Positions 1-61,096 of a DNA stretch of 64,000 bases are shown here, one piece after another. A program made the position numbers and the translations under genes. Positions within the stretch are counted from its first letter, which is position 1; every line of letters starts with the position of its first letter. The notes under the pieces are model-generated. The model worked only from the letters and a program-made list of their open reading frames with translations, was not told where the DNA came from and made no database searches. This DNA is from a virus: IMG/VR virus record IMGVR_UViG_3300044800_000286. One strand, written 5' to 3'.

Positions 1-76
1 GTAGAAAGCGGTCATATACAACGGCTGGGACGGCTTCAAGGCCCAAAGAATATTGAAAATGGACGCGTTCAAGGCC
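1..76 (+). pseudogene. 5' part (runs off the window) of a VESG-repeat protein gene split by the IS605 insertion
   Basis: Frame 1 reads VESGHIQRLGRLQGPKNIENGRVQG. Joining base 76 to base 3103 restores ...GRVQG-R-KNVESGQ... in frame. Confidence 0.8.
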
Positions 77-125
77 TTGACATCCTCCCCTCCCTAAAGG
101 GAGGGGATTCCTACTGGCTCACCTG

Positions 126-722
126 CTAGGCAGGGATGCCTTCGGTGGGTTCCTGACACGACGGGCTTACTTCACCCGAAGGTTGCGAACAGGCTAACGA
201 GGCTAATCCAGCCTCTTTGATGTTCCATGCGCCAACCCAATCCGCATTGGCTGAGAAACCGCACGATACGCAAACGAACTTCGCTTGCGATTTGCGGTCT
301 AGAGTCTTACCCCCGGGGCGCACGCCCATGTCAGCTAGGAAATTTTCAAAGCTGTTTAACCAGTGCTCGCAGATACTAATTCCTCGTCCGCCGTAATCAG
401 CAAACCGTGTGCTGCGGGGGTTTGTACAGCGTTGAATCATATTCGACCACGCGTTGTACATCTGACTGTGATTCCTCTGAAGGGCGTGGCCGTGTTTTTG
501 TGGGGTATGAGAGTTGCACCCGTTTAGGGGGGCAATTTCCCTGCGCAAACAGCCACAGCTTTGTGTGTGGCCACAACTTAGAGTAGCACCAGCGAGAAAC
601 ACCAAACCCCCGCAACTGCAAAGACAGAGCCACCAGACCTGGCTGGACTTTCCACTCCTTCGTCGTCCAATAGGCCACTGGGCTGTCAAACGCCCAAAGC
701 GTTTACCCGTCAAATCCCTCAC
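126..722 (-). CDS. Chimeric ORF: HNH endonuclease N-terminal part fused to a TnpB C-terminal Zn-ribbon/RuvC-III fragment
   Basis: DLTGKRFGRLT...WLCLCSCG...YGGRGISICEHW...RPGGKTLDR, then abruptly KSQAKFVCVSCGFSANADWVGAWNI. Confidence 0.75.
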   Translation of the reverse strand: MRDLTGKRFGRLTAQWPIGRRRSGKSSQVWWLCLCSCGGLVFLAGATLSCGHTQSCGCLRREIAPLNGCNSHTPQKHGHALQRNHSQMYNAWSNMIQRCTNPRSTRFADYGGRGISICEHWLNSFENFLADMGVRPGGKTLDRKSQAKFVCVSCGFSANADWVGAWNIKEAGLASLACSQPSGEVSPSCQEPTEGIPA

Positions 723-958
723 AGCTTCCTCCCATACTTCCTGTAAAATTCCTTCGCCGTGAGGAACACCCGATCCCACTGCTCCTGGCTGACATCGGGC
801 ATCCGGAACGTGACGCTGGCGGCTCCGCGAGCCAGGCGGTCGCCGTGATCCGGCCCCGGCTCGAAGGTCGTGCGGGCGCGGTCGGTCTTCTTCAGGCGCT
901 CGGCTTTCTCCAGGACGCTTACGGCTTTCTCCTTGAAGCTCCTAGTTCGCCTGGACAT
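719..958 (-). CDS. Hypothetical protein (IS cargo)
   Basis: ORF whose stop overlaps the next start (GTGA). Confidence 0.55.
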   Translation of the reverse strand: MSRRTRSFKEKAVSVLEKAERLKKTDRARTTFEPGPDHGDRLARGAASVTFRMPDVSQEQWDRVFLTAKEFYRKYGRKL

Positions 959-1118
959 CGGTGCCCTTCGTTGTCGGATTTGTGCCCTCGACATACTCTT
1001 TTAGCCGATCAGCGAAAAAGGAATCCAGCAACTTGTGTACCCGCACCAGGCGGGCCGTGCGCGACCGGATGCCGAGGACTTCCAGGATCGTGGATGCATA
1101 GGCTTCGGTTACGGTCAT
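942..1118 (-). CDS. Hypothetical protein (IS cargo)
   Basis: MTVTEAYAST..., with a GGAG RBS and an ATGA overlap with an upstream truncated ORF. Confidence 0.5.
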   Translation of the reverse strand: MTVTEAYASTILEVLGIRSRTARLVRVHKLLDSFFADRLKEYVEGTNPTTKGTDVQAN

Positions 1119-1313
1119 GGTCTTCGCTCCATTTCCCACAAGACTTTTTCGTCCACGAGCTTGTAGCAATGCGCGAGGACTTCCTCGGGGCCGGTGCCTT
1201 GGAGCTTGGCGTGGATCACGCTGCCCCACAGCAATTCCCTGCGCGCCGGGCCGTTCCAAATATCGCCATCTTGACATCCTCCCCTTCCTGAAGGAAGGGG
1301 ATTCCTACTGTGC

Positions 1314-2618
1314 TTAGGTGCACGATTGCACCTGAGTCACTTCAGTGGGTTCCTGCTTCACGGAGCTTGTCTCATACGCACCGAAGCGCGTCCAAGATGG
1401 AAACTCTCCACAGGCTACGAAGGCACGTCCTGCCTCTAATTTATTCAGTGCTGCAACCCAGTCTGCGTTTGCTTCAAACTGGCATTCTGGGTTGATGCAC
1501 CGAAACAGTTCTTGGGTTTTCCTGTTCTCTTTCGCTGTGCGACCACACGACGGACAATGCTGGCTTCCATATGCGGGCGGGCAAGCAATGTAGACGCCAC
1601 CACGCCATTCCGATTTGTATTTCAGTTGGCGGTTGACCTCTCCAATTCCTTGCCGTTGCAACGAGCGATTGAGCCCAGATTTCTGACGAACATTCTTACC
1701 AGGTTCTTCCTTCGTACCTTTGGCTGATTTGGTCATCTTCTTAATTTCCAAATCATCCCCGTACACTATCCCGTGATTTTTGGTGATGGTGTTCGTGAAT
1801 TGATGACGATGGTTGTTCCTGATATTTGAAACCTGACAGTCTATTTTCCTGATTCGCAATTGCAACTTCTTCCAGTTGGAACTGAACTTGACTTTGTTCT
1901 TTAGTTTCTTCTGGAGAAATTTCTTACGCTCTTCCAAACGCGAGGTATTGGGAAGCTCGCTGACGCCGCCATCTGACATTGTTGCGAACTTTGCGACTCC
2001 CATGTCGATGCCAATATCAGAGGATGATGGGTGATTCGGGATTTCTACCTCGCGTTCTGTTTGGATAGATACAAAGAATTTGCCGCACGATTCTGACACC
2101 GTGACATTCTTTATCTCGCCAAGCACCTCTTGGCTATTGCGATAGCGCATCCAGTCAAGCTTAGGCATCTGAATGCGGTTGTTTGCCTGGTCTAGTGTGA
2201 CGCCTTGAGGGTATCGAAACGAATCGTGCTGTCCCTTCTTCTTGAAGGTTGGGGGATACGCAAGCGGTACGCCGCGCTTCCTGAGGATTTTCCGAAGCTT
2301 CTTATCCTTCGGGGCGATACGAAAACCCTTCTTGATATCCGCGAAGAATCGCGCATACGCAAAATCTAAATCCACCAGAGCTTGTTGAAGCGTCTGGGAA
2401 GGAGCTTTTGACAACCACGGAAGCTCTTTCTTCCACTCTGTGATGAGTTTATCCAACTGAAAGCGCGTATGCTTCTTGCCGATTAGTTGGTACATCTCCT
2501 CGTTGAGCGCAAGCGCTTTGTTGTAGATTACACGCTTGCAGCCGAGGAATCTCCGCATATCACGGATTTGTTCTCCGTTCGGTTGAAGCTCGAATTCGAA
2601 CGCTTGCTTTCTAATCAT
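1314..2618 (-). CDS. tnpB: RNA-guided endonuclease TnpB (IS605 OrfB)
   Basis: N-terminal AFEFELQPN, RuvC-I GIDMGVAKFA, RuvC-II region YGDDL, Zn ribbon CPSCG...CINPEC, RuvC-III NADWVAALN. Confidence 0.95.
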   Translation of the reverse strand: MIRKQAFEFELQPNGEQIRDMRRFLGCKRVIYNKALALNEEMYQLIGKKHTRFQLDKLITEWKKELPWLSKAPSQTLQQALVDLDFAYARFFADIKKGFRIAPKDKKLRKILRKRGVPLAYPPTFKKKGQHDSFRYPQGVTLDQANNRIQMPKLDWMRYRNSQEVLGEIKNVTVSESCGKFFVSIQTEREVEIPNHPSSSDIGIDMGVAKFATMSDGGVSELPNTSRLEERKKFLQKKLKNKVKFSSNWKKLQLRIRKIDCQVSNIRNNHRHQFTNTITKNHGIVYGDDLEIKKMTKSAKGTKEEPGKNVRQKSGLNRSLQRQGIGEVNRQLKYKSEWRGGVYIACPPAYGSQHCPSCGRTAKENRKTQELFRCINPECQFEANADWVAALNKLEAGRAFVACGEFPSWTRFGAYETSSVKQEPTEVTQVQSCT

Positions 2619-2640
2619 GGTTGCAGTATACTCTTGATCT

Positions 2641-3054
2641 ATGAGCTTGTCAAGCGAAATCCGACACGGTAGACATTGCGTTTTCTTACTTCACGTTCAC
2701 TTGGTCTTCGTGACCAAGTACAGAAGAAAGGTATTTGACGCTGACGCCATTCAACGACTCAGGGTTATGTTCGAAAAGGTCTGTCTCGATTTCGAGGCCC
2801 AACTGGTCGAGGTGAACGGCGAAGCCGAACACGTCCACTTGCTTATCAACTATCCCCCGAAACACTCGGTGTCCACGTTGGTGAACAGCCTTAAAGGTGT
2901 TTCCAGTCGATTGCTCAGGCTGGAACGACCTGATATTGAGAAACGCTATTGGAAGAACGTTCTTTGGTCGCCCTCGTACTTTGCCGCCAGTTGTGGTGGG
3001 GCACCGCTTGAAGTTCTTAAACAATACGTTGAGCAACAAAAGACACCTCTTTAA
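2641..3054 (+). CDS. tnpA: IS200/IS605 Y1 (HUH) transposase TnpA
   Basis: HLVFVTKYRR, HUH motif EHVHLL, LKGVSS, LWSPSYF, catalytic Tyr in YVEQQ. Confidence 0.96.
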   Translation: MSLSSEIRHGRHCVFLLHVHLVFVTKYRRKVFDADAIQRLRVMFEKVCLDFEAQLVEVNGEAEHVHLLINYPPKHSVSTLVNSLKGVSSRLLRLERPDIEKRYWKNVLWSPSYFAASCGGAPLEVLKQYVEQQKTPL

Positions 3055-3102
3055 GAGCCTTATATCCCCGCCCTGAAGTGCGGGGCTTTACGGCTCTGGC
3101 GG

Positions 3103-3299
3103 GTAAAAATGTTGAGAGCGGACAATTAGCCAACCTGCGGACGCATGAACATCAAGTAGCAGCAGGTCGTGCCGCAGGCAAGAAGGCGGTTGATACGGGA
3201 CAATTAGCCGCAATATGCCACACCCGCTGGCACATCAATCGACAGGTTGTAATTCCCAATTGTGCTTTGTGCCAAGGCGGAGGAGCCGATGCCGTCTAG
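3103..3299 (+). pseudogene. 3' part of the split VESG-repeat protein with a C-terminal HxRWH...CxxC motif
   Basis: KNVESGQLA...VDTGQLAAICHTRWHINRQVVIPNCALC. An intact paralogue lies at 32723-33277. Confidence 0.8.
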
Positions 3300-3546
3300 C
3301 TCAGGATTTCAAAACAATTCCACGATTTCCAATGCCTTTTGGAGATGGATTCCGTCTGCGGACGATCCCACGGGGCGCATCATTTACATCGCCCTCAATG
3401 GTCTTCAGTTTATTGAAGCCACCCAAGACTCTCAAAAGGCTTGGCTGTATTACGCTGCCAATAATGTAGCCTCGTCCCAAGAGCCCTACATTCTCCAAGG
3501 TCTGGTTGCTCAAGCTTTTTTGGGTGACCTCGGTGGGTTGTTCTAA
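3289..3546 (+). CDS. Putative virion protein
   Basis: GGAGGAG RBS, TAATG coupling to the next gene, structural-gene neighbourhood. Confidence 0.6.
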   Translation: MPSSSGFQNNSTISNAFWRWIPSADDPTGRIIYIALNGLQFIEATQDSQKAWLYYAANNVASSQEPYILQGLVAQAFLGDLGGLF

Positions 3547-4013
3547 TGCCCGAGCAGACGCCTATCCTCGACGCCTTGGAAACCTCGGCAATCATCAACC
3601 GGAAGGACAAGCCCGGCCAAGTGCCGTGGACCGAATGGCGGGTGCCCGTGGTCACGGCCTCCGGCGGCCCGCCGTCCGAAGGCAGCATCCCCATGCTGGA
3701 CGCCAGCGGGCAGATCGACTCCTCGATGATTCCAGGCGGGGGCGGGAGCTCCGCCGTGAGCGTCAACGGGGTGCTCGTCACGAACCCGAACTTCAACGAC
3801 GCGACGCCCGCCGCGCCGACCGCGTGGCGCAACGTCCTGTGGCAAAAGGACGGCACGGGGGATGTCAGCGCCTATCTGGACATCGCGGGCACGCTTCTTC
3901 CCGCCTTGGAGATCAACGGCATGGGCGTTTCGGCGGACAAGCAATTCTATTTCAACGGTGTCGCGGACGTTGTTTCCGTCTGGGGCGTCCAGATAAACGG
4001 AGCGGCAGGATAA
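3546..4013 (+). CDS. Putative virion/tail protein
   Basis: G/S/T/V-rich. Contains NFNDATPAAPTAWRNVLWQKDG, also found at the N-terminus of the 4590 protein. Confidence 0.7.
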   Translation: MPEQTPILDALETSAIINRKDKPGQVPWTEWRVPVVTASGGPPSEGSIPMLDASGQIDSSMIPGGGGSSAVSVNGVLVTNPNFNDATPAAPTAWRNVLWQKDGTGDVSAYLDIAGTLLPALEINGMGVSADKQFYFNGVADVVSVWGVQINGAAG

Positions 4014-4606
4014 TGGACTTTTACACATACCTTTATCTTCGAGAAGACGGAACTCCTTATTACGCAGGAAAAGGAACTTGGCTTGCGAATCTCTCGAAAA
4101 ACGACCACCATCAACGTGTTTATACCAAACGTGGTCATGAAATTCATCCACCCAAAGATCGTAGTCGTATTTTAATTCTTGAGCGCTCTAATGAGACAGA
4201 AGCATTTGCTACAGAAAAAGAATTAATTGCCAACTGGGGGCGAAAAGATTTAGGTACGGGCTGTCTCTATAACAGAACAGAAGGTGGCGATGGTACTTTT
4301 GGGCTTAAATGGAGTCCAGAATCTATAAAGCGCATGTCCGAAAGCCGTAAGGGTGAGAAGTGTTATTGGCTGTTCGGGAAACGAGGACCAGGAACTCCAA
4401 GATGGGATAAGAAAAGACCTCATACCGAAGCTACCAAACACAAGATGTCCGAGACTCATAAAGGGGAGAAGTTGAGTGAGAAACATCGTTTGGCCGTTGG
4501 TAAAGGCCAAAGAACGGAAGAAGCCAGAGCAAATATGTCAGAAATTATAACGCAGTGGTGGGCCACCAGAAAAGCCCAGGAGAACTCCAATTCCATCCAA
4601 CTTTAA
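4013..4606 (+). CDS. GIY-YIG-like homing endonuclease with NUMOD3-type tail
   Basis: FYTYLYLREDGTPYYAGKG...LYNRTEGGDG...HTEATKHKMSETHKG; lower GC than its neighbours. Confidence 0.85.
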   Translation: MDFYTYLYLREDGTPYYAGKGTWLANLSKNDHHQRVYTKRGHEIHPPKDRSRILILERSNETEAFATEKELIANWGRKDLGTGCLYNRTEGGDGTFGLKWSPESIKRMSESRKGEKCYWLFGKRGPGTPRWDKKRPHTEATKHKMSETHKGEKLSEKHRLAVGKGQRTEEARANMSEIITQWWATRKAQENSNSIQL

Positions 4607-7355
4607 TAATTCTTCTCCAGCAGCACCCACCGGAAGTCTCAATGTATCTTGGCAGACCGACGGCAGCGGAAACGATTCCGCCTATGTCCCGCCATTCGCA
4701 GCATCGGGCGCATCGCACTCGCCAGGCCTTGTTCCCGACCCCGGCGCGGTCGGCGGCACGACCCATTTCCTGCGCGAGGACAGCACTTGGCAGGTTGTTG
4801 CCGCAGGCAGTGCCTCATTCGATACTATCACAACGGGTGTCAACACATCCGCCGACATGACCGTGAGCGGCACCGCCCAACTTGTGTACTCGGGCACGGG
4901 CGTGGTCAACGCCAACGAGGTCGGGGGCATCAACGCCGCCGGGAACGCGCCCGTGCACGCGGGCCAGCTTCTAATCTCCCAGCCCGGCAACACTTCCGCC
5001 GTTTGGGCCGACCCGCTTGTACAGGGTGTCTATCCCGATGGATCATCCATCACCTCGCCCCCGATCAACCCCGTGTATGTCGGCGGCGTCGGGACGGACG
5101 GAAAACTCCACGGCATCTCGGTTGACGATTCCGGCGTCGTGCAGGCAACAGTCAGCGGCACCGTCAGCGCCAATTGCACGCAGACTACCTCCCCATGGGT
5201 CGTGAGCAACGGCGGAACTTTTGCGGTTCAGGCGGCTATCAGCGGCTCGATCAGCAACACCTCGTTCGCGGTTACGAACACGGGAACCTTCGCGGTGCAG
5301 GCAGCATGCACGGGCACTGTCAGCGCCAACTGCACGCAAACCACCTCGCCTTGGGTCGTCAGCAATGGCGGGACATTCGCAACGCAGGACAGCAACCTCA
5401 GCGGATGCATTGGGTCCAGCAAGGTCAACGTAAACATCAGCAGCGGCAATCCCACGACCATCGCCTGCACCAACACGGGAACCTTCGCGGTTCAGGCGGC
5501 TATCAGCGGCTCGATCAGCAACACCTCGTTCATCGCCACACAGGGGATCGGATCAAACCTCCACACGGTCGTGGACAGCGGCACAGTCGATGTCGGGTCG
5601 GTCGGCGGCACGGTCACGGTTGCGCAAATCACTTCTCCTCCGACTCCGTGGGCTGTGAGCGGAACCCTGGCGACCAACTTGAATCCGCCGAGCACGAACA
5701 ATCTGGGCGTGCTTCCGGCGTTGGCGAGCCAAGTCGCCCCGATTTACGTCGAAGGCTCGCAGATTCTCCTTTCCACAGACTTGACCGGCGCTGTCCGCAC
5801 AGTATTGCCGCAAACGACGAGCGTCATGGGCGACTTGGTTTCCGTCGATAGGCGGAACCAGTATGACATAAATTTCTCCGGAGCGGATGCCACGAACGCC
5901 GCGCTGTTGACCAATTCGTCCACGGGAGGCGGAGCGGTCGCCCAAGCGAACGGACTGGGAATCTACAGCGCGGGAGCCACGCCGTCCACGGCGGGGGACG
6001 CAAAGGGAGTTTCGGTCCAGCTACTCGAATACCGCCCGGGCTTCGACGCTTACGCATATTTCACCGCCGCTTTCGTAGCGCCTACGGACAGCAATGCAGC
6101 GCACAACTTCGTCCGAATCGGGCTGTACGGAGCCACGGACGGCTTTTATGTGGGCTTCGAGGGAAACGTTTTCAGCGCCAGCGTCAGGCAGAACAGCGCC
6201 GATTCCCATGTGGGTCAAGGCAGCTTCAACAGGGACAAGCTGACAGGTTCGACGGGTTCCCGCTTCACCCGCAACGGCGTCGTGGAAGCGGTCAACTTCG
6301 CCTACCTGAACCTTTACCGGGTCCGTTTCAGTTGGTTCGGCGCAGCGCCCATCGTGTACGAAATTTTGACCCCCGACGATGTGTGGATTCCGTTTCAGGA
6401 AATCCTGCAGCCGAACACATCGTCCACGCCATCCATTTACACCACGCTCATCCCCTTCACCGGCGAGGCCTTCAAGAGCGTCGCCAGCGCTTCCGCCAAT
6501 GTGCAGTTCAGCAGCGGATGCTGGGCCGTAGGAACTACAAGCTCGGATGTCAGGCTGAACGACGCCGTGATCGACAGCAACACCGCCGAGCTTGTCCGGG
6601 CCGTCATCACCGGCAAGGGACCGAGCGGCTATGCCAACGTGGCAATCGACGGGGCGGACAATCTCTACGTCAGCGTCTACAACATGCCGGGAATCGCCAG
6701 CCCGGGCGCAACAGGAAACGCCGGTTCCCTCCTGGAAGCGGGCACCCTCGTCAACAGTTCCGCCCCGTCCTACTCCAACAACACGATCGAGCCCCTGAGC
6801 TTGGATACCGCGGGCAATCTCCGCACAGTACTGAACGCCGAAACCTCGAAGGTCATCGGCACGGTCCGCAATCTGGGCAATGCCGGAGCGGCCTTCGACG
6901 CCGCGACTGGCGCAACCGTTCCCGCCAACGCGATCCAAGTCGGAGGTCTCGCGAAGACCGCTTTGCCGACAGCCGCCAGCGACGGGCAGCTTGTGGCTCC
7001 CTTGGCGGACAAGTTCGGTCGTCAAGCCGTGGTCCTTCAAGGCGACCGCGCGCTAACGACCCCATTCAGCTACCAGTCTACAGCAGCCTCACCAGCCACG
7101 ATGATTGCGTCCGGCGGGACGGGCGTCTTTACGGACATAACCGAACTTATTCTCACCAATGAAAGCGCGACAGCGACCATCGTCTCGATTTCTGATGGCA
7201 CCATTGCCTATAATTTTGCCCTGGCGGCCAATGGCGGCTTGACCAAGACCTTTGCTACTCCGTTGAAGGCAACTTCAGCGGCCACAGCGTGGACCGTTTC
7301 TAACTCCTCAGCCGTCAACGTCGATTGCGTTGGCGTTGTCATCGACAACAAATAA
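4590..7355 (+). CDS. Tail fibre/virion structural protein (probable ATT start; first ATG at 4857)
   Basis: Long A/G/S/T/V-rich ORF with internal repeats. The frame is open for 89 codons upstream of 4857, with an AGGAG RBS before ATT at 4590. Confidence 0.75.
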   Translation: MPSNFNNSSPAAPTGSLNVSWQTDGSGNDSAYVPPFAASGASHSPGLVPDPGAVGGTTHFLREDSTWQVVAAGSASFDTITTGVNTSADMTVSGTAQLVYSGTGVVNANEVGGINAAGNAPVHAGQLLISQPGNTSAVWADPLVQGVYPDGSSITSPPINPVYVGGVGTDGKLHGISVDDSGVVQATVSGTVSANCTQTTSPWVVSNGGTFAVQAAISGSISNTSFAVTNTGTFAVQAACTGTVSANCTQTTSPWVVSNGGTFATQDSNLSGCIGSSKVNVNISSGNPTTIACTNTGTFAVQAAISGSISNTSFIATQGIGSNLHTVVDSGTVDVGSVGGTVTVAQITSPPTPWAVSGTLATNLNPPSTNNLGVLPALASQVAPIYVEGSQILLSTDLTGAVRTVLPQTTSVMGDLVSVDRRNQYDINFSGADATNAALLTNSSTGGGAVAQANGLGIYSAGATPSTAGDAKGVSVQLLEYRPGFDAYAYFTAAFVAPTDSNAAHNFVRIGLYGATDGFYVGFEGNVFSASVRQNSADSHVGQGSFNRDKLTGSTGSRFTRNGVVEAVNFAYLNLYRVRFSWFGAAPIVYEILTPDDVWIPFQEILQPNTSSTPSIYTTLIPFTGEAFKSVASASANVQFSSGCWAVGTTSSDVRLNDAVIDSNTAELVRAVITGKGPSGYANVAIDGADNLYVSVYNMPGIASPGATGNAGSLLEAGTLVNSSAPSYSNNTIEPLSLDTAGNLRTVLNAETSKVIGTVRNLGNAGAAFDAATGATVPANAIQVGGLAKTALPTAASDGQLVAPLADKFGRQAVVLQGDRALTTPFSYQSTAASPATMIASGGTGVFTDITELILTNESATATIVSISDGTIAYNFALAANGGLTKTFATPLKATSAATAWTVSNSSAVNVDCVGVVIDNK
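5151..5531 (+). repeat. Intragenic repeats (GTVSANCTQTTSPWVVSNGGTFA x2; TFAVQAAISGSISNTSF x2)
   Basis: Near-identical nucleotide blocks, e.g. ~5217-5267 versus ~5481-5531. Confidence 0.85.
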
Positions 7356-60505: not shown

Positions 60506-60545
60506 GGTTCCTTCCTAGAAAATGCTTTGACATCCTCCCCCGCAT

Positions 60546-60695
60546 TCATGCGGGGGATTCCTCCTTGGCGGAATAGTCTTGGGCCAAAAGTTGCTCTTCT
60601 GTCACGGGCACAGGAGGTTTGGGGTTTCTACTTTTGAGCCAGAGGTAAAAGCCGCCGAACACAAGAACAGCAAGAAGGATATCTATAAGAATCAC
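60546..60695 (-). CDS. 49-aa membrane peptide
   Basis: GAGGAG RBS; MILIDILLAVLVFGGFYLWLKSRN... Confidence 0.6.
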   Translation of the reverse strand: MILIDILLAVLVFGGFYLWLKSRNPKPPVPVTEEQLLAQDYSAKEESPA

Positions 60696-60702
60696 GGTCT
60701 CC

Positions 60703-60813
60703 TCACTTTGCCTTTTTCCACAAGTAGCGGATTAAGGCTACCATCAAAACAAGCGGCAGCCCAAAAACAACGAGGTAAAACAAAATCCCCAGCCCAAGCA
60801 TTAGATAAAGCAC
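60703..60813 (-). CDS. 36-aa membrane peptide
   Basis: GGAGGAG RBS; MLYLMLGLGILFYLVVFGLPLVLMVALIRYLWKKAK. Confidence 0.6.
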   Translation of the reverse strand: MLYLMLGLGILFYLVVFGLPLVLMVALIRYLWKKAK

Positions 60814-61096
60814 ATTCTTCTCCTCCCGCGGTTAGGACGCACTGAACTCAACCCTCCCGTGTAGTATACCACATTTGGGTAAAAGGCTACTACCCCAAGC
60901 CGTTGATTTGCTGGAGCTTCTGACGCTTGTGGACTCAAGCGTATAATTCCCCTATTTTCAAGTATTTTCAACACCCTAAAGTCGGCCTTACCCTGCCCTG
61001 AAGTGCAGGGCTTGCGGCCTCCACGGGTCAAAGCCGCAGTACGGGCAAGCCGACTCAAGGTCTTGGTCCCCCCGAGCGAGGACGAGCGGATCAGGG

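Follow-up and report, generated by a model that had tools for sequence, protein, structure and literature searches.

Probable capture of foreign phage DNA by an IS605-type element with two right ends in a giant phage from peat

The window analysed here, a stretch of 64,000 nucleotides (nt) from the IMG/VR virus record IMGVR_UViG_3300044800_000286, is part of the genome of a giant phage of peat origin and begins inside a gene that is interrupted by a composite insertion of the IS200/IS605 family. The top strand of this element is the minus strand of the window. Read in that direction, the unit follows TTTAC and comprises a left end (LE1), tnpA in divergent orientation, tnpB, a first right end (RE1), 972 nt of foreign phage DNA (1270..299) and the 3' tail of a different tnpB (tnpB2) with a second right end (RE2), after which the interrupted host gene continues from position 76. 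The window contains 12 tRNA genes and the CheckV completeness of a 51.9-kb contig from a relative is 16%, both of which are consistent with a very large phage. Contigs of relatives were drawn from IMG/VR, ENA, JGI and Logan samples. The host gene and the complete element are laid out as follows.

1-76, plus strand: upstream part of the interrupted host gene, joined to 3103 onward at 100% identity in contigs L003 and L007-L012
3103-3299, plus strand: downstream part of the interrupted host gene, continuous with the upstream part in the same contigs
3103-3107, minus strand: TTTAC, the target and presumed transposon-adjacent motif (TAM), directly 5' of LE1; read directly
3055-3102, minus strand: LE1, with an imperfect hairpin (3085-3066) preceded by GTAAAG (3091-3086); read directly
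2641-3054, plus strand: tnpA, Y1 HUH transposase gene of 137 amino acids (aa), divergent from tnpB (Pfam Y1_Tnp, e-value 8.9e-43)
2625-2653, minus strand: promoter-like site upstream of tnpB (TTGACA, 17 nt, TATACT), 11/12 matches in a consensus scan
1314-2618, minus strand: tnpB, RNA-guided nuclease gene, 434 aa (Pfam HTH_OrfB_IS605, OrfB_IS605 and Cas12f1-like_TNB)
1271-1456, minus strand: RE1 and an omegaRNA-like scaffold overlapping the 3' end of tnpB, with GGAAT (1305-1301), a hairpin (1300-1281) and the tail AGGATGTCAA, whose TCAA ends at 1271
1251-1270, minus strand: guide 1, the 20 nt directly 3' of RE1, GATGGCGATATTTGGAACGG, matched exactly after TTTAC in the uninterrupted contig L014

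The limits of the insertion are fixed by its empty site. The first-pass annotation, made from the letters of the window, had proposed that removal of 77-3102 restores a single open reading frame (ORF) with the target TTTAC, that LE1 and RE2 delimit the composite, RE1 being internal, and that the 20 nt beyond RE2 (guide 2) match the present empty site. Seven contigs from other samples bear this out, and the anatomy agrees at every coordinate. A 23-nt probe spanning the predicted empty site retrieved the IMG/VR contig L003 (51.9 kb), in which window positions 3210..3103 are joined to 76..1 at 100% identity. Look-up of a neighbouring 155-aa gene added six contigs from ENA, JGI and Logan (L007-L012) with the same joint 76|3103, again at 100% (99.96% in L011). 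An intact ORF of 252 aa is called across the joint in L007, L008, L011 and L012 (L007:4996-5754, reading ...GRVQG-R-KNVESGQ...). Since these contigs equal the two flanks joined with nothing added, the insert is exactly 77-3102, or 3,026 nt, directly 3' of TTTAC (3107..3103, minus strand), with neither duplication nor loss of target sequence. Guide 2, GGCCTTGAACGCGTCCATTT, directly follows TTTAC in all seven. The insertion is a rare and recent variant of a widely sampled phage.

The interrupted 252-aa protein contains an HKHH...N...H stretch and several 11-residue repeats (G-x-KN-x-E-x-G...) and has no match in Pfam. A NUMOD3-containing gene (4013-4606) lies two genes, about 700 nt, away, the host gene being upstream of it, and because of this proximity the host gene is probably another homing-endonuclease-like gene. 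The insertion also creates a 73-aa ORF across the junction of LE1 and host, for which an exact-protein look-up returned no match.

Every feature of the IS200/IS605 family (IS605/IS608 type) that was tested is present in the element. Its ends differ from one another and carry subterminal hairpins (3066-3085, 1281-1300 and that of RE2) without terminal inverted repeats, and a structured omegaRNA-like scaffold is predicted over the 3' end of tnpB and the right end, with the flank as guide. TnpA aligns with IS608 TnpA (2a6m; e-value 1e-20), HVH falling over HIH and KQYVEQQ, with its tyrosine, over KQYIENQ; with the HUH motif and the catalytic tyrosine kept, the enzyme looks intact. TnpB aligns from end to end with ISDra2 TnpB (8bf8; e-value 9e-31) and likewise looks intact, its catalytic D/E/D positions having been read by eye only. 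The promoter-like site upstream of tnpB is the sole one in 1-3300, where shuffled sequence gives a mean of 2.1, and is a consensus match only.

The element shares with IS608 (ISHp608, from Helicobacter pylori) and ISDra2 (from Deinococcus radiodurans) a Y1 HUH TnpA, a TnpB and asymmetric hairpin ends. In all of them the target is not duplicated, a T-rich motif terminating in TTAC stands 5' of the insertion and TCAA closes the right end. The divergent arrangement of tnpA and tnpB is that of IS605 proper. In IS608 the left hairpin is directly preceded by AAAG and the right hairpin by GAAT, and the same holds here; the GTAAAG before the LE1 hairpin is complementary to the target TTTAC. Unlike IS608 and ISDra2, this element sits in phage genomes, and within its mobile limits it includes a second right end as well as 972 nt of unrelated DNA.

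Close relatives of these proteins are scarce. TnpA has relatives of 91% identity at most. Among the species-representative genomes of bacteria and archaea that were scanned, no TnpB exceeds 50% identity to the one here, which is on record in three contigs only. Phage records in GenBank gave no near match to the insert flanks and only 69-75% matches to tnpB. Exact-protein look-ups were empty for TnpA, for a 91-aa reading of cargo gene 3 and for the fused HNH ORF.

Beyond RE1, the mobile unit continues with the following features.

1115-1270, minus strand: cargo gene 1, the 3' part (51 codons) of a 71-aa gene interrupted after codon 20 (TTT TAC); full gene at L014:1476-1691
942-1118, minus strand: cargo gene 2, 58 aa; same gene order in L014-L018
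719-958, minus strand: cargo gene 3, 79 aa; 99% identical to protein P0121 (L014) and 72% to P0122 (L015-L018)
743-747, minus strand: internal TTTAC, target of the inner element in contig L001, as seen at the junction there
297-718, minus strand: cargo gene 4, an HNH-type homing-endonuclease gene without its C-terminal catalytic block (phrog_374, e-value 6.4e-44)
293-298, minus strand: junction of the HNH gene and tnpB2, with ACCGC in both parents, from alignments with the longer L016/L017 tnpB and with HNH homologues
77-298, minus strand: tnpB2 remnant and RE2 (222 nt), an orphan right end and candidate second omegaRNA scaffold, with a stop at 126, GGAAT, a hairpin and AGGATGTCAA ending in TCAA at 77
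57-76, minus strand: guide 2, the 20 nt directly 3' of RE2, GGCCTTGAACGCGTCCATTT, directly after TTTAC in the empty site

The second right end appears to be the remains of another element. The HNH reading frame ends with 57 C-terminal residues from another TnpB (Pfam TNB, e-value 3.5e-05; phrog transposase, e-value 1.5e-09), about 45% identical to the resident TnpB. The remnant is 80% identical to the 3' end of a longer tnpB in L016 and L017 and, because that copy extends further, the alignment places the HNH/tnpB2 breakpoint inside normal tnpB coding sequence. The same position of its 5' edge led us to reject the idea that the remnant is a complete mini-element within the HNH gene. We infer that an illegitimate deletion with ACCGC microhomology left the right end orphaned.

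RE1 and RE2 are closely similar. Their last 41 nt are 93% identical and the terminal 15 nt, the longest run in common, are the same. Each has GGAAT followed by a hairpin, and the sole difference between the stems is compensated. To judge from these signals, both right ends look competent. Sixty-odd bacterial relatives of TnpB (no more than 50% identical and mostly from Burkholderiales) have the same 3' layout. In an alignment of 36 sequences (33 of the relatives plus RE1, RE2 and L016), RNAalifold predicted 46 pairs, 20 of them with compensatory changes. A covariance model, R1, built from 30 bacterial relatives only, with the window sequences left out, matched RE1 over its full length at 125.1 bits (E 6e-37), RE2 at 77-235 with 107.6 bits (E 1.4e-31; model positions 1-163 of 163) and the L016 right end, also over the full length, with 114.4 bits. 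The RE2 remnant retains every covarying helix of the 3' RNA of this clade and, because the match spans the whole model, it is a complete predicted RNA module rather than a random stump, in keeping with the earlier remark that the retained piece is about the size of an omegaRNA. The LE1 hairpin (3066-3085) is also a weak match to R1. The only Rfam family found at both right ends (64-143 and 1258-1392) is HgcC. Its matches are weak (26.5 bits for RE1 and 25.6 bits for RE2), below the curated threshold of 50, and suggest a resemblance between this old archaeal non-coding RNA family and the guide-RNA scaffolds of TnpB.

The origin of the DNA between RE1 and the tnpB2 tail could be traced. It had been read from the window as captured phage DNA, with guide 1 as the record of a former insertion site, and contigs from metagenomes agree on both counts. 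In L014 (JGI sample 3300052918) the 71-aa gene is intact, followed by the 58-aa and 79-aa genes. Over 561 nt this contig is 99.5% identical to window positions 1270..710, and the match opens with the very base that follows RE1. L014 reads ...GGATTTTTAC then GATGGCGATATTTGGAACGG..., so that TTTAC stands directly before the first base of the cargo. The junction of RE1 and cargo is therefore, on this alignment, an old insertion junction carried along with the element. A second cluster, on L015-L018, is 72% identical in protein and 78% in DNA; there the same three small genes lie upstream of a 171-aa ORF, the large terminase gene and the portal gene, as identified with Pfam. Given the intact 71-aa gene in L014 and a gene order common to these 78%-identical relatives, the L014 locus represents, as judged by sequence comparison, the ancestral state of the donor site. 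L015-L018 read TTC TTC at this site and so are without the TTTAC target. Among 5.8 billion proteins, only two clusters are homologous to the 79-aa cargo protein, and the donor-type terminase gene was found on one contig only. We considered whether the DNA after RE1 conceals the left end of an older element and rejected this, as no hairpin like that of LE1 is present and the sequence is ordinary coding sequence in L014.

Beyond position 710 the window departs from L014 into the HNH-type gene. The first-pass annotation spoke of small genes and half an HNH gene; the gene is indeed truncated, but about 83% of it (about five-sixths) is present and alignment with homologues shows the last ~30 residues, the DNDGNYEPxNCRWAT catalytic block, to be absent. 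No relative of this gene above 53% identity was found, nor was the immediate donor variant. Searches with the other diagnostic sequences were also unproductive: a scan of metagenome contigs with guide 1 gave three chance matches, none related to the window, and neither guide 1 nor the intact cargo junction, nor the exact tail of RE1 or RE2, was found in scans of IMG/VR.

The neighbourhood of the donor site holds other mobile sequences. In L016 (1-441) and L017 (1-344) another tnpB 3' end with a right end lies just upstream of a 75-aa gene, in the same orientation, and in L014 the interval upstream of the 75-aa gene has an RRXRR-type HNH gene in place of the tnpB 3' end. This packaging-gene neighbourhood of the donor type seems to have been struck repeatedly by IS605-type elements and homing-endonuclease genes.

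The cargo might, by the same mechanism, have come from another locus of the giant phage itself rather than from a second phage. Donor-type contigs have the same G+C content (56%) and correlate with the window in tetranucleotide usage at 0.89-0.90, against 0.94 between the two halves of the window, and only part of the giant phage genome was examined. Yet the 79-aa cargo family occurs in only about 7 contigs, while genes of the giant phage occur in 37-43 blocks of the collection, and the 51.9-kb contig of a giant-phage relative contains no match to the donor locus or the insert, although this proves little. An origin within one genome seems to us improbable, though it deserves to be kept in mind.

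The inner element, from LE1 to RE1, moves alone. Contig L001, from the same sample as L014, has window positions 3015..1271 joined straight to 742..77 at 100% identity, reading ...GTCAA then AGGAAGTATGGG. The inner element therefore lies directly after the internal TTTAC, 528 nt away from its position in the window, and this precise placement indicates that its ends are active in the population. TTTAC thus directly precedes three independent insertion junctions, those at the host site, at the donor site of L014 and at the internal site of L001. A single base, at window position 744, sets the internal target: TTTAC, with a Tyr codon, in the window and TTTTC, with a Phe codon, in L014.

L001 terminates exactly at RE2 and a further contig, L002, exactly at RE1. 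Assemblers break where the sequence past a point varies among genomes, and these termini bear on two other accounts of the composite. The first is that it is a chimera of assembly, reads from a donor phage having been threaded into an insertion in the giant phage by way of the similar right ends. The data are from metagenome assembly, the host|LE1 and RE2|host joints come from a single assembly, and the ends of L001 and L002 mark RE2 and RE1 as branch points in other assemblies. However, the longest run shared by RE1 and RE2 is 15 bases, which we assume to be shorter than the k-mers common in assembly, every junction is exact, and the block from cargo to RE2 is found at 100% identity in L001, an independent JGI contig. 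We consider a chimera very unlikely.

The second account has two steps: a simple element was inserted first, and the cargo was copied in later, when this phage recombined with a donor phage in which the same element was present. One crossover would have fallen in the 1.8-kb element, the other in the short stretch in which RE1 and RE2 end identically. Both types of phage occur in the same samples (3300044823 and 3300044798), the right ends share an identical terminus of 15 nt and 93% of 41 nt, and the end of L002 exactly at RE1 allows for other sequence after RE1 in that sample. Against this, no contig has a simple insertion at the host site, where seven are empty, the second crossover would be confined to about 15 nt of perfect identity, and an element rare enough for its TnpB to be known from three contigs only would have had to arrive twice independently. 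This route is hard to favour and we rate it as decidedly unlikely.

A single event of 3' capture ('transduction') explains the composite better, and we think it likely, with good though not complete confidence, that TnpA joined LE1 to the orphan RE2 and moved the 3,026 nt as one unit. Capture in one event is indicated by the one clean indel that separates the window from seven contigs with flanks at 100%, bounded by TTTAC-LE1 on one side and the TCAA of RE2 on the other. In the proposed sequence of events, a donor phage would have carried a complete element (LE1, tnpA, tnpB and RE1) after TTTAC in the 71-aa gene upstream of its packaging genes. About 1.2 kb downstream, in the same orientation, would have lain the RE2 of a second, mostly deleted element, fused to the truncated HNH-type gene. 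For TnpA, a left and a right hairpin end would suffice if both lie on one single strand; by pairing LE1 with RE2 and not with RE1 it would have excised a circle of 3,026 nt and then inserted it into the nuclease-like gene of the giant phage, behind TTTAC. TnpA of the IS608 type is known to act on one strand with left and right hairpins, its cleavage sites being paired with the bases 5' of each hairpin (PMC3201880, PMC3597680). By analogy, this chemistry offers nothing by which RE2 could be told from RE1 and, since RE2 has GGAAT, a compensated hairpin and the identical tail AGGATGTCAA as RE1 does, pairing of LE1 with RE2 is the simplest account. The LE1-RE2 event itself, the production of both RNAs and their use by TnpB are what we infer.

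Four points weigh against this interpretation. Neither junction between insert and host was found in an independent contig, both being present in one assembly only. The immediate donor, with the inner element and the fusion of HNH gene and RE2, was not recovered, and L014 contains neither. No promoter-like site for the predicted RE2 RNA was found in 1-3300, so that read-through transcription and processing would be required. Finally, the efficiency of IS608 excision drops as the ends lie further apart, and an event between LE1 and RE2 is expected to be rarer than one between LE1 and RE1.

The nested structure has a further consequence if both RNAs are made. Excision of the inner element would leave in place the TTTAC of the host followed by GATGGCG..., the target of guide 1, and excision of the whole unit would leave TTTAC followed by GGCCTTG..., the target of guide 2 and also the wild-type allele. 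The putative RNA of each right end would thus guard one of the two excision joints, and guide 1 would have a role beyond that of recording a former site. Under the model in which elements are retained through RNA-guided cleavage (PMC10055086), both nested levels would be retained or copied by cleavage and recombination, provided that both predicted RNAs are used.

Of the three right ends that model R1 recognises in the window, the third belongs to a separate gene-less IS605-type element at 60527-61026 (minus strand). This element, 500 nt long, has a hairpin like that of LE1, and its right end terminates with GGGGAGGATGTCAA; the two ORFs that it contains are small and hydrophobic. It is preceded by TTGAC, not TTTAC, and CAAG replaces AAAG before its left hairpin, which fits the IS608 rule of pairing with the target. 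It is older and fixed, since it is present at 100% identity in relatives without the 77-3102 insert, and its empty site was not found in a scan of IMG/VR. Elsewhere in the window, a secondary BLAST match revealed a 54-nt repeat, 96% identical between 5214-5267 and 5478-5531, in an 832-aa gene that we presume to be tail-fibre-like from its Gly/Ser/Thr-rich repeats.

Several known systems resemble parts of this arrangement. Stand-alone omegaRNAs acting in trans and gene-less derivatives of IS200/IS605 elements of the PATE type have been described (PMC10691335, PMC10055086). The third element, a left and a right end around little or no coding sequence, conforms to the definition of the latter. 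RE2 with its 222-nt tnpB tail is like the former in being a putative scaffold without an effector, for which TnpB would be required in trans, from 1.2 kb away. It differs from a PATE in that it has no left-end hairpin, starts within tnpB coding sequence at the illegitimate HNH junction and would move only by serving a complete element nearby as its outer right end. As in IS91/ISCR elements, Helitrons and the 3' transduction of LINE-1, an element's own terminal signal is skipped, one downstream is used and the DNA between is carried along. Here, by contrast, movement would be by Y1 peel-and-paste with a circular single-stranded intermediate, not by a rolling-circle or retrotransposition route, and the signal used downstream is a true second right end rather than a chance resemblance to one. 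In common with a classical compound transposon such as Tn10, cargo lies between sequences recognised by the transposase, but there is only one complete insertion sequence, with a single left end and one tnpA/tnpB pair, the second part being a right-end remnant.

Elements of the IS200/IS605 family are usually regarded as minimal, cargo-free insertion sequences. Cargo in the family was reported in 2023 as a rare observation (PMC10691335), and the literature searched contains no description of cargo capture by an IS200/IS605 element through a downstream right end, nor of how cargo is gained. Rare cargo and omegaRNAs in trans were already known.

We also entertained a more speculative idea, which we think rather unlikely to be correct: that the nested unit works in phage populations as a two-guide system, capture doubling as a way of gaining and keeping a 'spacer' against the previous host genome. 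If so, TnpB guided by the RE2 RNA would cleave the wild-type allele of the giant phage in co-infected cells, and the whole 3-kb unit would be copied in after the fashion of a homing endonuclease. The RE1 RNA, with its exact 20-nt match next to TTTAC, could meanwhile cut a gene in the packaging region of a rival phage, represented by L014, that is likely to co-occur. Such a unit would lie naturally on the way from the guide RNA of a transposon to a defence or offence locus with several guides.

For this one event, the empty target, the ancestral donor site and a sister arrangement are all preserved. Together they point to a simple route by which these elements may gain cargo, the pairing of a left end with a downstream orphan right end, and so to a mechanism by which very abundant elements may move genes, here probably between two phage genomes. 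A single TnpB locus may in this way gain several guide-RNA modules, which bears on the origin of multi-guide systems. With one TnpA, two right ends, one TnpB and two candidate guides with known targets, the unit also provides natural substrates.

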